A DNA stretch of 64,000 nucleotides from a virus (lineage: Duplodnaviria > Heunggongvirae > Uroviricota > Caudoviricetes), in the IMG/VR virus record IMGVR_UViG_3300017565_000001, positions 269,741-333,740 of that record. One strand, written 5' to 3'. The notes beneath the pieces were generated by a model. That model was not told the origin of the DNA. It saw nothing but the letters and a program-made list of their open reading frames with translations, and made no database searches. Position numbers and translations under genes: made by a program. Each line of letters begins with the position of its first letter. Positions within the stretch are counted from its first letter, which is position 1. Shown in pieces: positions 1 to 53,418 of the stretch.

Positions 1-612
1 GCTCTTGGACATCTTGCGGCCGTCAAGACCGGGCAGTACATCAGCAACAGTTGACACTTGTGCTTCGGGTAAATCAAAATGTTGGCCGTAAACATGGTTG
101 AAACGTTGAGCGATGTCTCGAGCCATCTGAATGTGTTGAATCTGATCGTAGCCGACTGGAACCGTATTTGCATTGAACAGTAGAATATCAGCCGCCATCA
201 ATACAGGGTAGGAATACAACCCCATACTGATACCATCGTCTACATCATGCTCCAACTTGTTGTTTTGGTCGACTGCGGCCTTATAAGCATGGGCGCGATT
301 CATCAGCCCCTTGGCAGTCACACAACTCAGAATCCAATTTAGTTCTTGGATTTCGGGAATGTCTGACTGTCGGTAAAGAGTCACATGATCGGGATCCAAT
401 CCAGCGGCGAGCCACGAAGACGCAATTTCAAGTCTTGACTGCGCCACCCTTGCCGGTTCGTCACATTTGATGAGAGCATGATAGTCAGCCAGAAAGAAGA
501 ACGATTGTGTATTGGGCTGTAGACTTGCCTGAATCGCGGGACGAATGGCACCAGCATAATTCCCCAGATGGGGAATTCCTGTTGTCGTGATACCAGTGAG
601 GATTCGTTTCAT
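1..612 (-). CDS. trpS: Tryptophanyl-tRNA synthetase (3' end runs off the window; absent from the ORF track)
   Basis: Manual translation from ATG at 612: [23 protein letters not shown]...FLADYHAL...[12 protein letters not shown]...[22 protein letters not shown]...[12 protein letters not shown]. Contains HIGH-like HLGN and KMSKS class I motifs plus TrpRS-type [16 protein letters not shown] upstream. Confidence 0.95.
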
Positions 613-8724: not shown

Positions 8725-9198
8725 ATGTTCTACACTCAAGTACTGAAATTTCCACGCTTGCCAGACCACCTGGTACAAAAGGCCCTAGACAGCATCCGGG
8801 ACTATGAAGTTCAGGATGAATTCGAGAAGACCGGAAACTACCGCTGGCATCTGCTTGATCCTCAGGTCCAGGAATGGCTCAACACCAATGTTCTGGAGGG
8901 TGCCTGGGGTATTCAAACAAACACTGATGACAAAGACCTTGATGTCCACGTCGATCGTTTTACTCCCACAAGGATCCTGTATACCCTGGATCCTGGTGGT
9001 CCCAATGTCACAACCACTTTCTATGAAAATGATCGAAAAACTGTCATTGAATCAATTGTCCTGCAACCACATACCTGGTACGCCCTAAAGACTGACATTT
9101 ACCACGCCGCCCATGGTATCGTACCAGGCCAAACCAGAATCGCCATCACTGTACGATTCTTTACCAATCACGAACCCAAGCCGCTCAAACCGCGTTGA
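8725..9198 (+). CDS. Putative 2OG-Fe(II) oxygenase / cupin-fold protein
   Basis: HxD (VHVD), distal H (IYHAA) and RIAITVRF strand; TAAATA at 8704. Confidence 0.5.
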   Translation: MFYTQVLKFPRLPDHLVQKALDSIRDYEVQDEFEKTGNYRWHLLDPQVQEWLNTNVLEGAWGIQTNTDDKDLDVHVDRFTPTRILYTLDPGGPNVTTTFYENDRKTVIESIVLQPHTWYALKTDIYHAAHGIVPGQTRIAITVRFFTNHEPKPLKPR

Positions 9199-10132
9199 TT
9201 CTGATCACTTCCCGGGGAGCATGAACAACACCCAGGCCTCGTCCCACACTTGCTTTTGCCAGTTCGGGATGTTTGTTCATCCAATCCTGAACGTACCACA
9301 GTTGTCCACAGCCACCACCGATGTCATCTTGTCCCGCGGGATCAAAACAACGAACGCTGAAGCCATGAGCCAGTAGACGGGCCATGAAACCTGTTGCCAG
9401 TTCACGCTGGCGTACATTTGCGGCAGCAACCGATTCATCGCGTTCACACACCACGCTCACGGTTGCTTCCCAGACCTTGGGATCAAAGCGGGCGGCGATT
9501 CGATCTGCGTCAGCCTGGCTAGTATTTGCTTCGTGAGCGCAGTAGTTGAAGAAGGGCTTCCGTCCCGTGGCAGCAAACCATGATTCACCAGCAGCCGCGA
9601 TCTCGTCCAGGTTCAACTTGGCTTTGAACGGAACCAGCTCATTCCTGGCTTCATCCGTACTTTCATGCACGCTGAATTGGAGCCCCACCATGGGTACTTC
9701 AGCACTCAGGGCATTCACACGCTCGTAATCAACCTTGGGAGCGCTGGTGCTGATCAACAGGGCAAAGCGGGGATATTTGGCATGTAGGATGCGAATCGCT
9801 TCGGACAATCCTTGAAAGTTCAGCAACGGTTCACCCATCGACATGAACATGATCTGACACTTCTGCACTTTCGTGACATCGATGTTTCGATCAGCGAACA
9901 GGTAATCCACTTGTGCGACGATTTCTTCAGCGGTAAGACTACGAACGAATGCATCACCAGCACCACAGAAACGGCAGCCGACTGGGCAACCACTTTGAGT
10001 ACTGCAACATATTACCGTTCGATCTTCGTATGTGGGATATTTGTAGAGCACGGCTTCAGCAACCGCATTATCGAAATCGAAAACGTATTTGCTGACGTTT
10101 TCGTCCGATGAATCTACTCGTTTGACTTGCAT
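9185..10132 (-). CDS. RlmN/Cfr-family radical SAM RNA methyltransferase
   Basis: ICCSTQSGCPVGCRFC (CxxxCxxC plus upstream Cys), FMSMGEPL, LQFSVH, DDIGGGCGQL (catalytic Cys). Lacks the RlmN N-terminal helical domain. Confidence 0.85.
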   Translation of the reverse strand: MQVKRVDSSDENVSKYVFDFDNAVAEAVLYKYPTYEDRTVICCSTQSGCPVGCRFCGAGDAFVRSLTAEEIVAQVDYLFADRNIDVTKVQKCQIMFMSMGEPLLNFQGLSEAIRILHAKYPRFALLISTSAPKVDYERVNALSAEVPMVGLQFSVHESTDEARNELVPFKAKLNLDEIAAAGESWFAATGRKPFFNYCAHEANTSQADADRIAARFDPKVWEATVSVVCERDESVAAANVRQRELATGFMARLLAHGFSVRCFDPAGQDDIGGGCGQLWYVQDWMNKHPELAKASVGRGLGVVHAPREVIRINAV

Positions 10133-10235
10133 GCCATTTCTCCGTGCTTTTGATGCACCCATGGTACAATGAAATGGCAAGCTGTAAAGAGGAAGGTGGT
10201 TGCAAAATCAAATTATTTCACAACACCACCCCATG

Positions 10236-11283: not shown

Positions 11284-11358
11284 TGGTGCTCCCAGTTGGA
11301 CTCGAACCAACACTCCCGGTCTTATGAGGACCACGCTTTGCCTTTAAGCTATAGGAGC
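11284..11358 (-). tRNA. tRNA with CAU anticodon (Ile2 or elongator Met)
   Basis: GCTCCTA acceptor stem pairs with TGGGAGC; anticodon arm GGTC-CTCATAA-GACC; T loop GTTCGAGTC; encoded ACCA 3' end. Confidence 0.92.
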
Positions 11359-12265: not shown

Positions 12266-12937
12266 TTACCACAACAGGTTAAAGTTACCACCCATCACTT
12301 TGTCGCAAGCTGCACTCTTACCAGTCACGTGATCTTTTACCTGGTTGTCCTGGAAACGATACGTGCGAATTTTATCACCACGCATACCAGAACCAACTTG
12401 GCTCTTACGAGTGCTTGCTTGTTCGGCATTGTGTACAGCGGTTGAATGCCCATTGAGGCGTTCCAAGATCGTAGTCTTAGCCTCATTTAGGGAATTTTCA
12501 CGACTGCGACACTGCGCGGTGGCCACCACCCCTGTTGCGATGTGGGTGATTCGGCAAGAGTTTTGATGTTTGTTTCTGTGTTGACCGCCCGCACCGGTAC
12601 CAGAATACCATTCAATCTTGAACTCGCGTTCGTTGAACGTTATCTCTTTTACTTCCTGGGGGTCAATTACTGCGACCGTAACCGTCGATGTGTGAACTCG
12701 ACCCTTACGTTCAGTGGGAGGAACTCGTTGGATTCTGTGTCCGCCGGGTTCATTGTTGAGCGCTGATAGATCATCCCCTTCAACCTCGATGGCAACATCG
12801 GCGGTGTGGACGTCAATCAGGCGGTGCTTTCAGCCGTTCTTGGTGAAATGCTTCATGTAAGCGGCAGCCAGATCCTGTGCAAACAGTCGGCTATCTTCGC
12901 CACCCTCGGCGGCGCGGATTTCAAGTACTCGTTTCAT
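12266..12937 (-). CDS. prfA-like: RF1-like class I peptide chain release factor lacking domain 1, interrupted by an in-frame TGA at codon 36 (12830-12832)
   Basis: MKRVLEIRAAEGGEDSRLFAQDLAAAYMKHFTKNG*KHRL...EPGGHRIQRVPPTERKGRVHTSTVTVAV...SGTGAGGQHRNKHQNSCRITH...DKIRTYRFQDNQVKDH. PxT and GGQ motifs intact; single 224-codon frame; AGGAG SD. Confidence 0.9.
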
Positions 12938-12997
12938 CTCGATCTCCTATTTGTTAGATGAAAATGAAGTCTACTGGCTAAACCACCAGAGATCAAG

Positions 12998-39721: not shown

Positions 39722-42538
39722 ATGTACGTGGACGCAATCCATTCGCGTGATTCCGACGAGATTCATATTGTTGAACGTAATAAAAATGGCGAGCGAGTAT
39801 ACAAAACTTTGCCCGCCAATTACGTTTTCTACTATCCTGATTCTCGCGGGAAATACAAGAGTATCTTTGGTGATGCTCTATCAAAATATTCAACTGTAAA
39901 CGGTAAAGCTTTCAATCGAGAAAAGATGCTCGTGGGAAGCAAAAAGAAACTGTTTGAAAGTGATATCAATCCAGTGTTCAGGTGTTTGGAAGAAAACTAC
40001 CTGCACGCTGACACCCCAGTTTTGAACCTGGGTTTCTTCGATATTGAGGTCGCATTTGACCTTAAACGTGGCTTTGCCCCAACTGAAGATCCATTCAACC
40101 AGGTTACGGCTATCTCAGTCCATATCAGCAATTTGAACAAGCTAGTGACGTTGGTATTACCACCGCCCACTATGTCACTTGATGAAGCTGAACGAATCGC
40201 CAACAAGTTTCAGGACACTATCGTGTTTGATGACGAAGCTGATATGCTTCGTGCATTCCTGGATTTGATTGACGACGTGGATGTTCTGAGTGGTTGGAAC
40301 TCAACGGGCTTCGATATTCCCTATATGGTGAATCGTATTATCCGTGTGTTGGGTAAGGACGAAGCACGACGTTTCTGCTTGTGGGGCCAAATGCCCAAGA
40401 AGCGGGAATACATTAAGTTCAAGAAAAAGAACTTCACTTATGATCTGGTTGGTCGTGTTCACCTGGATTATTTGGAACTGTATCAAAAGCACAACCCGCA
40501 ACAGCTTCACAGCTATCGACTGGACTTTGTGGGTGAAATCGAAGTTGGCGAAAACAAGACACCGTATGAAGGTACGCTGGATGATTTGTACAAGAAGGAC
40601 TTTGAAAAGTTCATCGAATACAACCGTCAAGATACCATGCTGCTGGTGAAGATCGACGCGAAGAAACGCTTCATCGAACTTGCTAACCAGATTGCGCACA
40701 CCAACACGGTGCTTCTTAAGACCACCATGGGATCGGTTGCACTTATTGAGCAAGCTATCACGAATGAAGCACATGAGCGTGGCATGATCATTCCTGACCG
40801 CAAGCCACGTCCCGGTACATATGGTTCAGATGACGATGAAGAAGCATTCGACGATGATGACGATGATGATGACTCTCCTAAGGGTAAGTTGACTGCTGTC
40901 GGCGCATACGTGGCTGATCCTAAGACTGGCATTCAGGATGAGATTGGTTGCTGCGACATTAACTCCCTGTACCCGTCCACTCTTCGCGCCCTCAATATGA
41001 GCCCCGAAACGTTGGTTGGGCATATTCGCCCCATTGCAACGGATGCTATGTTGGATAATCGCTTGCGATCAATGGCCAGCAATCTGATCTGGGAAGGTGT
41101 GTTCTGTACTCTGGAGTTTGACAGCATCAGAGACCGTACTATGGACGCCATCGAGATCGACTTTGAAGATGGTACCAGCACTAAGATGCGGGCTGAAGAA
41201 CTGAACAACTACATCTTCCACGAAGGTCGTCCTCTGTCGATCAGTGCAAACGGTACTTTGTTCCGTACTGATATCGAGGGTGTGATTCCTGGTCTTCTGG
41301 CAAAGTGGTATAGCCAACGAAAGACTATGCAGAAAAAGGAGAAGGAATTCTCCAAGTTGCTCAAGGAAGAGAAGGCTAAAGATAACCCAGATGCTGCACT
41401 GATTGCTGAATATTCATATCAGGAAACTTTCTGGAATCAACGTCAACAAGCTCGTAAGATTTTGTTGAACTCGCTATACGGCGCTTTGTTGAACGAAAGC
41501 ATGAAGTTTTATGACAAGCGTATTGGTCAATCGGTTACTTTGACCGGTCGTTCAATTGCTCGTCACATGAATAGCAAGATCAACGAGATTATCACCGGCG
41601 CTTATGATTATAAGGGTGACGCGATTATCTATGCTGATACTGACTCGTCATATTTCAGCGCAAAGGCAGTTTGGCAGAATCGTCCAGAATACAAGGACTT
41701 TGAATTCACTCGTGACAATATTATCGCTCTTTACGATGGTATTGGTGACGAAGTGAACGAAAGTTTCCCTGAATTCATGCATCGTTCATTCAACACTGGT
41801 CTGGAACGCGGGGCCATTATTGCTGCTGGTCGTGAACTGGTTGCTAGTAAGGGTCTGTTCATTAAGAAAAAGAAGTACGCGGTACTCATGTACGACAAGG
41901 AAGGTTTCCGGTACGATACTGACGGTAAGCCTGGCAAGTTGAAGGTCATGGGCCTGGACCTGAAGCGCAGCGATACGCCTCAATTCATGCAAGACTTCCT
42001 GGAAGAAGTCCTGATGTCAACGCTGACTGGCAAGACTCAGGATGACATCTTTGAACGTATTCGTGGATTCCGTCGTGATTTCCGTGAACGTCCAGGTTGG
42101 GAAAAGGGTACTCCCAAGAAAGTAAACGGCTTGACCGATTACATGGACAGGGAAAACGCTGCTGGTAGTTTGGGTAAGAACATTTTCACCAGCGCAAACG
42201 TGGGAACGAAGAGCAAGGTGAATATGCCAGGTCACGTTCGTGCTGCTATGAACTGGATGAAGCTGCGTAAGATGCATGGCGACAATTTCAGTATGAGCAT
42301 TACTGACGGTCAAAAGGTTATCGTATGCAAGCTGAAGCCTAATCCAATGAAGATGGATTCGGTTGCTTATCCGATCGACGAACCACACTTGCCGCAATGG
42401 TTCAAAGAATTGCCGTTTGATCATTCGTTGATGGAAGAAACGATTATCGACTTCAAACTGTCCAACCTGTTGGGCGTTCTGAAGTGGGATTTGAGCAAAA
42501 CCAACGACGACATCGAAAACGAACTGTTTAGCTGGTAA
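39722..42538 (+). CDS. Family B DNA polymerase (T4 gp43-like)
   Basis: Exonuclease FFDIEV, GWNSTGFDIPY, YNRQD; polymerase DINSLYPS, KILLNSLYG, YADTDS, KKKYA. Confidence 0.97.
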   Translation: MYVDAIHSRDSDEIHIVERNKNGERVYKTLPANYVFYYPDSRGKYKSIFGDALSKYSTVNGKAFNREKMLVGSKKKLFESDINPVFRCLEENYLHADTPVLNLGFFDIEVAFDLKRGFAPTEDPFNQVTAISVHISNLNKLVTLVLPPPTMSLDEAERIANKFQDTIVFDDEADMLRAFLDLIDDVDVLSGWNSTGFDIPYMVNRIIRVLGKDEARRFCLWGQMPKKREYIKFKKKNFTYDLVGRVHLDYLELYQKHNPQQLHSYRLDFVGEIEVGENKTPYEGTLDDLYKKDFEKFIEYNRQDTMLLVKIDAKKRFIELANQIAHTNTVLLKTTMGSVALIEQAITNEAHERGMIIPDRKPRPGTYGSDDDEEAFDDDDDDDDSPKGKLTAVGAYVADPKTGIQDEIGCCDINSLYPSTLRALNMSPETLVGHIRPIATDAMLDNRLRSMASNLIWEGVFCTLEFDSIRDRTMDAIEIDFEDGTSTKMRAEELNNYIFHEGRPLSISANGTLFRTDIEGVIPGLLAKWYSQRKTMQKKEKEFSKLLKEEKAKDNPDAALIAEYSYQETFWNQRQQARKILLNSLYGALLNESMKFYDKRIGQSVTLTGRSIARHMNSKINEIITGAYDYKGDAIIYADTDSSYFSAKAVWQNRPEYKDFEFTRDNIIALYDGIGDEVNESFPEFMHRSFNTGLERGAIIAAGRELVASKGLFIKKKKYAVLMYDKEGFRYDTDGKPGKLKVMGLDLKRSDTPQFMQDFLEEVLMSTLTGKTQDDIFERIRGFRRDFRERPGWEKGTPKKVNGLTDYMDRENAAGSLGKNIFTSANVGTKSKVNMPGHVRAAMNWMKLRKMHGDNFSMSITDGQKVIVCKLKPNPMKMDSVAYPIDEPHLPQWFKELPFDHSLMEETIIDFKLSNLLGVLKWDLSKTNDDIENELFSW

Positions 42539-52869: not shown

Positions 52870-53418
52870 ATGCCGATTGAAAACGAACGGAAATATGTCC
52901 TAAGGGACGAAGATTCATCTGGATTTAAGGCTAAACTGGTAACTATGCCAGGTGCAACGTCCTTGGATCTGAAACAAGGTTACCTGGACAAAGCCAATCG
53001 AATCCGGTCAATCCGTCGACTGGACGGGACGGTCCAATACTTGTTCACCTACAAGACAAAAGTGAACGGCAACCAGATTGAAATTGAAAACGAAATCTCG
53101 GAACGTGACTTCAACAGTCTGTGGACTCTCGTAGGTAATGTCATTACCAAAACTCGGATTGTTGTCCCATTTGGGGATTACAAATGGGAAGTAGACTTCC
53201 TGCATAGCTACAAGAAGAAAACGCTGGGTGAGTGCTATCTGGTTATGGCAGAAGTTGAGTTGCCAGAAGATCAGGAGCTCCCCAATCAAGTGCCCGACTT
53301 CATATCCGAAAACCTGGTTTATCTGGTTCCCCGGGATGATCGCCGCTTTATTAATCGTAATCTATCTAGGGTTGGTACCGTCAAGCAGATGGTCCAAGAA
53401 TTGAAAAATGTCCAATAA
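52870..53418 (+). CDS. CYTH-domain triphosphatase
   Basis: ENERKY (ExExK), QGYL, RIR, EIENEI, KTR, WEVDF, AEVEL. Confidence 0.85.
   Translation: MPIENERKYVLRDEDSSGFKAKLVTMPGATSLDLKQGYLDKANRIRSIRRLDGTVQYLFTYKTKVNGNQIEIENEISERDFNSLWTLVGNVITKTRIVVPFGDYKWEVDFLHSYKKKTLGECYLVMAEVELPEDQELPNQVPDFISENLVYLVPRDDRRFINRNLSRVGTVKQMVQELKNVQ

Follow-up and report, generated by a model that had tools for sequence, protein, structure and literature searches.

A release factor gene interrupted by a single in-frame TGA, at the very codon where RF1 has Trp, raises the question whether the stop is a defect or a device governing synthesis of the factor. The window, that is, the whole stretch of 64,000 nucleotides analyzed, lies in a virus record of 424,529 bp that carries direct terminal repeats. 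The genome of this source phage is referred to as G000, and four related complete genomes, G002, G003, G004, and G005, were compared with it. The features of the gene, together with a TrpRS gene considered below, are as follows (window positions).

12266..12937, minus strand: whole gene of the predicted short RF1-type release factor (short RF), 223 residues upon decoding of codon 36; final stop TAA at 12266-12268
12944..12948, minus strand: Shine-Dalgarno sequence AGGAG, 6 nt before the ATG (12937-12935)
12833..12937, minus strand: codons 1-35, encoding the fragment that termination at the gate would release; strand (residues 2-9) and helix (14-33) with a GG-E-D tip
12830..12832, minus strand: gate codon TGA, codon 36, at the Trp column of RF1; next base A (12829)
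12269..12829, minus strand: codons 37-223, rest of domain 2/4, domain 3, and C-terminal part
12713-12721, minus strand: PPT motif, residues 73-75, in domain 2/4
12581-12589, minus strand: GGQ motif, residues 117-119, in domain 3
1-612, minus strand: TrpRS, 333 aa when complete, continuing beyond the window start; TIGR00233, 294 bits; 11.7 kb from the release factor gene

A preliminary description of the locus had reported a 224-codon frame with a good Shine-Dalgarno sequence, PPT and GGQ motifs, and TGA at codon 36 as the only break, and this was borne out in every checkable detail. The single internal stop lies in the context AAC GGC TGA AAG. Among the relatives described below, AAGGAG was the most frequent hexamer upstream of the release factor gene (49 of 94). 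Past the gate TGA, the first in-frame ATG, GTG, or TTG is the GTG at 12529, beyond the GGQ motif; since no such codon lies between TGA and GGQ, an ORF finder gives just an 87-residue ORF from this GTG.

With codon 36 decoded, the product matched the Pfam families PCRF (PF03462, 1e-24) and RF-1 (PF00472, 2e-18). The match to the NCBIfam prfA model covered only positions 107-332 of 347, and domain 1 (~105 N-terminal residues) was therefore judged to be absent. The model scores were 198.6 bits for prfA, 119 for prfB, and 45.6 for prfH, all under the respective cut-offs; the prfA equivalog cut-off is 400 bits, and by this measure the protein is not a full-length RF1. Comparison with PDB chains by HMMER gave 143 bits for RF1 vs 82 bits for RF2. 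The protein contains PxT (as PPT) and not SPF, as well as GGQ and both the PCRF and RF-1 domains, which places it among class-I factors of the RF1 type; the RF1-like identity proposed earlier is thus supported by PPT and by profile scores far higher for RF1 than for RF2. The encoded factor is predicted to be an RF1-type class-I release factor without domain 1 and, judging by motifs and profile scores, should not read UGA, its own gate codon.

In the HMMER alignment, the Trp of RF1 from Thermotoga maritima (..KGW..) and Streptococcus mutans (..QGW..) falls exactly on codon 36, in agreement with the ungapped alignment given in the preliminary description. The AF2 model of the short RF had a pLDDT of 92.4, and its top Foldseek matches were ribosome-bound RF1 (TM 0.94, rmsd 1.5 Å). 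Residues 1-35 of the model form a strand and a long helix with a GG-E-D tip inside domain 2/4; termination-complex structures indicate that the equivalent helix of RF1 helps codon recognition. PxT and the Gln preceding it are invariant in the short RF family, whose PPT and GG-E-D are family-specific, in contrast to the usual PAT/PVT and GG-E/D-E.

A search of IMG/VR yielded 253 relatives. The best 80 of these 253 (61-74% identity), which were taken first, all carried TGA at the gate column (80/80). A second scan brought the set to 98 distinct coding sequences of close relatives; TGA was found in 98/98 and TGG in none. Each relative has exactly one internal stop in the release factor frame, and the terminal stop of the gene is TAA in 95 of the 98. 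Across the relatives pS was about 0.74 (saturated), with pN of 0.20 for codons 2-35 and 0.24 for codons 37 to the end. Recurrence of TGA in divergent homologues and selection on both sides of the stop had been proposed as checks in the preliminary description, and both came out in favor of a functional gene, the downstream part not evolving neutrally. Since an A-to-G change alone would give a Trp codon, yet is absent in 98 sequences, the stop itself is under selection. The alternative considered at the outset, a nonsense mutation or sequencing error, and likewise a pseudogene, is ruled out by the presence of TGA in 98/98 assemblies at saturated pS and low pN on both sides.

At +4, directly after the gate TGA, 73% of the relatives have A, 23% have G, and 3% have C, while U occurs in 0/98; these are related sequences and not independent samples. 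At the genuine TGA terminators of five genomes of the phage group, U is the most frequent +4 base (33%). According to one study, +4U lowers readthrough (PMC5289835). The window gene has A at this position, the UGA-A context pointed out earlier as leaky. Three features expected of programmed readthrough were found at this locus: a stop kept in diverged homologues, purifying selection on the in-frame part that follows it, and a weak termination context. The comparison of these sequences indicates that the gate stop is almost certainly real and programmed.

The peculiarity is confined to this gene. Under translation table 11, long ORFs span 81.5% of G000, and 212 of 473 (~45%) end in TGA; in the four related complete genomes, TGA accounts for 36-53% of stops. 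Being a frequent terminator in G000, TGA has its meaning of the standard code. Genome-wide use of code 4 (TGA = Trp) was rejected because TGA ends 212/473 long ORFs, a UCA tRNA is missing, and the release factor gene is the only one with a conserved in-frame stop. Two genome-wide screens were performed, for in-frame stops conserved relative to G004 and G005 and for long start-less frames preceded by a mini-ORF. No other conserved in-frame stops were found in G000, and the release factor gene alone survived both screens. Many further matches of the G004/G005 screen were shadows of long ORFs in other frames, and a TAG candidate of the mini-ORF screen (G000 423869-424348) was discarded since its translation is not protein-like. 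In-frame TAA/TAG backup stops follow TGA terminators in 31.7% of cases vs 20-25% in other frames, a difference confounded by gene overlaps.

A conserved in-frame restart after the gate was not found among 97 relatives: the first in-frame start varies from codon 40 to codon 184 and in 53/97 lies past PPT. A working factor therefore needs in-frame decoding of UGA. Conserved RNA structure 3' of the gate was also missing (RNAalifold, 0 pairs over 27 relatives; single-sequence z-score -0.81). A selenoprotein was rejected, since a SECIS-like hairpin is absent 3' of the UGA and the column is Trp in RF1. In-frame readthrough to the full-length RF1-type factor is very probably the only reading that fits these constraints, and we infer that Trp would be inserted at the gate.

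Synthesis of the short RF would then be controlled at codon 36, where the UGA would undergo programmed readthrough in frame. Host RF2 would terminate at this codon and release a 35-residue fragment, and a ribosome accepting an aminoacyl-tRNA at the UGA would continue in the same frame and produce the 223-residue factor. The decoder would most likely be near-cognate Trp-tRNA(CCA), while a phage UCA suppressor could serve in at least one relative. The output would depend on the competition between termination and decoding, so that efficient UGA termination would give little factor and weak termination more. Since the predicted RF1-type factor should not read UGA, direct negative feedback as in prfB would not be expected.

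No conserved promoter was found upstream of the release factor gene, the TAAATAC of many relatives falling inside the upstream coding sequence, and a sigma-70 scan ahead of the gene revealed nothing. Conserved operon partners were missing as well: RlmN-like and AAA genes lie elsewhere in G004, and the other neighbors are unmatched. The gene at window positions 9185-10180 (minus strand), co-directional with and downstream of the release factor gene, encodes an RlmN/Cfr-like radical-SAM RNA methyltransferase (TIGR00048, 110 bits, below the cut-off), with a 59% identical counterpart at another location in G004. A lone tRNA-Met(CAU) at 11284-11358 (minus strand) is placed within the same gene string, 60 kb from the main tRNA cluster (G000 169-226 kb).

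The bacterial relatives bear on the purpose of the gate. A scan of bacterial genome records revealed short RF genes with the signature HRxQR[VI]PPTE in Thiobacillus, Achromobacter, Novimethylophilus, and Variovorax, in numerous Myxococcota, on a plasmid of Cupriavidus, and elsewhere. The Trp column holds an in-frame TGA in seven of them, and in several the TGA comes 11-14 codons later. At 46 further bacterial loci, the frame of the N-terminal part differs from that of the rest, and the two meet at a prfB-type +1 cassette: CTT precedes the stop in 46/46, C follows it in 40/46, and a GGAGG- or GGGGG-like element is present within 15 nt upstream in 40/46, mostly 3-4 nt before CTT. The cassette stop is TGA at 32 loci, TAG at 14, and TAA at none. 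The shift sites are located at the two positions used by the in-frame gates, either the Trp-column codon itself or one some 10 codons further on. Near-identical bacterial genes differ only in TGA vs TAG at the shift site, and in L323, whose product shares 57% identity with the window protein, TGG is retained and CTT-TAG-C follows after six codons. A shared neighbor of the bacterial genes was not found, the equal-length upstream ORFs of L350 and L362 being unrelated.

Such a cassette makes the expression of prfB dependent on the activity of release factor at its stop. Mainly because a prfB-type cassette occupies the same structural position in the relatives, the window UGA is read as a gate responding to termination efficiency rather than as a mere brake. 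By analogy with this cassette, we infer that the gate is, with reasonable though limited confidence, a sensor of UGA termination efficiency operating by the mechanism given above. The readthrough switch suggested in the preliminary description is thus sustained in that the TGA is conserved and selected, in-frame decoding is needed, and the cassette-bearing relatives make sensing plausible; its proposed connection with TrpRS is not.

The best-surviving alternative is a fixed attenuator, in which the UGA merely cuts the yield of a factor harmful in excess, with a roughly constant readthrough of a few per cent and no sensing. As there is no conserved RNA structure after the TGA, readthrough may indeed amount to only a few per cent, which would suit a plain attenuator too, and a conserved phage decoder is likewise missing. 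Unregulated over-expression of RF2 is toxic in Bacillus subtilis, and that of RF1 causes a milder defect (PMC12421855). However, a weak Shine-Dalgarno sequence or promoter would suffice for such a purpose, yet the stop has been kept through saturating divergence and is never replaced by TGG, and the relatives use at the same place the prfB cassette, a known sensor. We therefore regard a fixed attenuator as unlikely, while still giving it some weight.

Another possibility is that the gate opens when a UGA-reading phage tRNA is expressed, which would time the synthesis of the factor. The G000 genome contains 55 tRNA genes and tmRNA, including an amber suppressor tRNA(CUA) and two tRNA-Trp(CCA). 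One of the latter (210778-210854) carries U11:A24, as in the Hirsh UGA suppressor; the change G24A in tRNA-Trp promotes UGA reading, but A24 is common among natural tRNA-Trp (PMC13092985). Position 24 of tRNA-Trp is A in G000 and apparently A in G003, while G002 and G004 have G24, and G005 lacks tRNA-Trp. A tRNA with the UCA anticodon was not found in G000, G002, G004, and G005 (ARAGORN, default), and relaxed settings applied to G000 gave noise only. On the other side, G003 carries two tRNA(UCA) genes of ordinary size beside its tmRNA, even though it uses TGA more than any other stop (53%); hence, the decoder may differ between phages. The TrpRS noted earlier in the same region does lie in the window (1-612), but its supposed link to the gate fails, since 11.7 kb separate the two genes and none of the genomes G002-G005 encodes a TrpRS. 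The candidate phage helpers (TrpRS, tRNA-Trp, A24) are not conserved in the gene content of the five genomes. Host near-cognate Trp-tRNA would therefore be the most likely general decoder of the gate UGA, with phage tRNAs as optional boosters, and a switch operated by a phage suppressor tRNA is improbable.

The tRNA complement of these phages has other unusual properties. G000 208896-208972 is an aberrant tRNA-Trp(CCA) (37 bits), in which the D stem contains mismatches and is preceded by an additional base. G000 215231-215318 is an odd 88-nt tRNA, to which ARAGORN assigned a four-base anticodon CACA and Infernal the anticodon AAU with a 23-nt D-loop insert; since neither anticodon is UCA, it was rejected as an opal suppressor. 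Suppressor tRNAs are present in all five genomes, within ~1.5 kb of the tmRNA gene in three of five, at the following sites:

G000 53129-53203: tRNA(CUA)
G002 258611-258769: tRNA(CUA)
G004 363408-363482: tRNA(CUA)
G005 124199-126759: tRNA(CUA)
G003 199793-200005: two tRNA(UCA) instead of tRNA(CUA)

In this phage group, the suppressor tRNAs have apparently changed between amber and opal anticodons. Client genes with in-frame TAG for tRNA(CUA) were not found. The tmRNA was marked as permuted (two-piece) by ARAGORN in all five genomes (G000 41648-42040); ANDNVYAAAA is an example of the encoded tags. A permuted tmRNA is characteristic of Alphaproteobacteria, cyanobacteria, and part of the Betaproteobacteria, and this property may be a hint to the phage host.

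Direct autoregulation would require that the short factor itself, having an altered or omnipotent specificity, reads UGA and represses its own production like RF2. The occurrence of TGA or TAG in the cassettes of near-identical bacterial relatives, as if one factor sensed both, could be explained in this way, and PPT and GG-E-D depart from the usual PAT/PVT and GG-E/D-E. On the contrary, the profiles are those of the RF1 type (prfA 198 vs prfB 119 bits; 143 vs 82 bits against PDB chains), and PxT with its preceding Gln is invariant, which makes such feedback highly improbable. Almost no credence is given to a 35-residue peptide followed by a re-initiated C-terminal protein, to a pseudogene or sequencing error, or to selenocysteine insertion: gene callers do split the gene and L218 has an ATG right after the TGA, but a conserved restart is missing, the stop is identical in 98 independent assemblies, the N-terminal 35 residues are modeled as a strand and the codon-recognition helix within domain 2/4, and the column is Trp in RF1 with no SECIS-like structure nearby.

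The phage gate can be placed in a wider family. An exhaustive protein search returned many fragments of 145-190 residues beginning just past the gate, the signature of split gene calls. Outside the close clade, TGA at the Trp column was found at 12 loci (L215, L218, L220, L315, L221-L223, L226-L228, L230, and L231), several from separate 50%-identity clusters. Three of these 12 end in TGA, so that the preference for terminal TAA is weaker than in the main clade. The L216 and L086 lineages keep TGG and have TGA four codons later, and L085, L316, L317, and L318 have no gate. IMG/VR scans with the P0006 and L215 proteins as queries gave no useful relatives, and megablast of the region against GenBank phages gave no match.

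In a quick tree, the short phage and bacterial RFs were separated from four bacterial RF1 sequences with an SH-aLRT of 99. Lineages at the base have no gate, and the derived group of 51 rows comprises 46 gated ones and two with a shifted gate. A single origin of the gate followed by few losses is possible on this topology, the inner supports of which are modest. The PPTE variant of PxT is common to short phage RFs and the seemingly full-length RF1 of CPR bacteria, Saccharibacteria among them (L340, L354-L357, L360, L366, L371, L373, L375, and L377); this shared motif may bear on the origin of the short RF family. A further set of IMG/VR loci (L233-L275) encodes small ArfB-type-like proteins consisting of the GGQ domain only and starting with MK[IV]TEDQFR[FY]EWFSGTGKGGQ; they are frequent in viral contigs, often directly 3' of a tRNA-like sequence.

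Tentatively, the short domain-1-less RF1-type factors of phages and bacteria could be one family habitually recoded just after helix alpha5, by UGA readthrough or by a CUU-UGA-C/CUU-UAG-C +1 shift. Its members might be back-up terminators made only when normal termination fails, either through cross-regulation with RF2 as the sensor and the RF1-type factor as the output or through broadened stop-codon specificity. The latter option is suggested by the interchangeability of UGA and UAG at the gate.

Recoding control of a release factor is textbook knowledge for RF2. Like prfB, the window gene encodes a class-I release factor and is interrupted early by an in-frame UGA, and its expression would hinge on stop recognition. 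It differs from prfB in having no frameshift, no CUU or Shine-Dalgarno-like element, and no C after the stop, the frame remaining unchanged; moreover, the gate site follows helix alpha5 of domain 2, while the prfB site is in domain 1. In 2025, a survey of 12,753 genomes reported that TAG does not occur in the prfB cassette and that there was no evidence for prfA being recoded in a programmed way (PMC12421855). Bacterial RF1 (prfA) shares with the short RF the PCRF and RF-1 domains, PxT, GGQ, and the fold (TM 0.94), but the short RF is without ~105 N-terminal residues. PrfH (RF-H, RtcB-linked) is also a class-I release factor homologue without domain 1. This identity was rejected because the short RF scored 45.6 bits with TIGR03072, under the cut-off of 166.65, and its fold matched PrfH (9mor) less well than RF1 (TM 0.67 vs 0.94).

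Among phages, the TGA-recoded Jade phages possess a module of suppressor tRNA, TrpRS, and RF1, itself written in the standard code (Borges et al., 10.1101/2021.08.26.457843). They resemble the source phage in the presence of phage RF1 and TrpRS and in UGA decoding, which is proposed for the source phage. However, they read TGA as Trp in many late genes, whereas in the source phage TGA is a normal terminator found in frame only in the release factor gene. Al-Shayeb et al. listed RF1 and RF2 among huge-phage genes with no word on gene structure. A published account of a gate in an RF1-type gene of a phage or bacterium was not found in open-access papers and bioRxiv.

The closest published analogue of the phage gate is the eRF1-type gene of Mimivirus. 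The release factor genes R726 of Mimivirus and mg280 of Megavirus have a conserved UGA that is read through, followed by a shift at CUU-UAG-C or CUU-UAA-C; insertion of Trp was proposed, and the D arm of the viral tRNA-Trp contains an A similar to that of the Hirsh suppressor (Jeudy et al. 2012, PMC3521657). As in the phage gene, the factor is virus-encoded, the early UGA to be read through is conserved, and the genuine stop is UAA; the CUU-UAG-C shift site also occurs in some bacterial relatives of the short RF. The Mimivirus factor is of the eukaryotic/archaeal eRF1 type, belongs to an amoeba virus, and depends on readthrough plus frameshifting, while the phage factor is of the RF1 type, has no domain 1, and would need one readthrough. 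In addition, the phage gate codon is one that its encoded factor should not read, unlike in the Mimivirus gene.

If this interpretation is true, huge phages and bacteria would share a large family of RF1-type factors invisible to gene callers, and the short RF genes that are now split or called as fragments would need to be annotated accordingly. The gate would be a natural case of readthrough with minimal context and the bacterial-world counterpart of the Mimivirus release factor gene. It would also bear on how huge phages handle translation termination beside their own suppressor tRNAs and tmRNAs.
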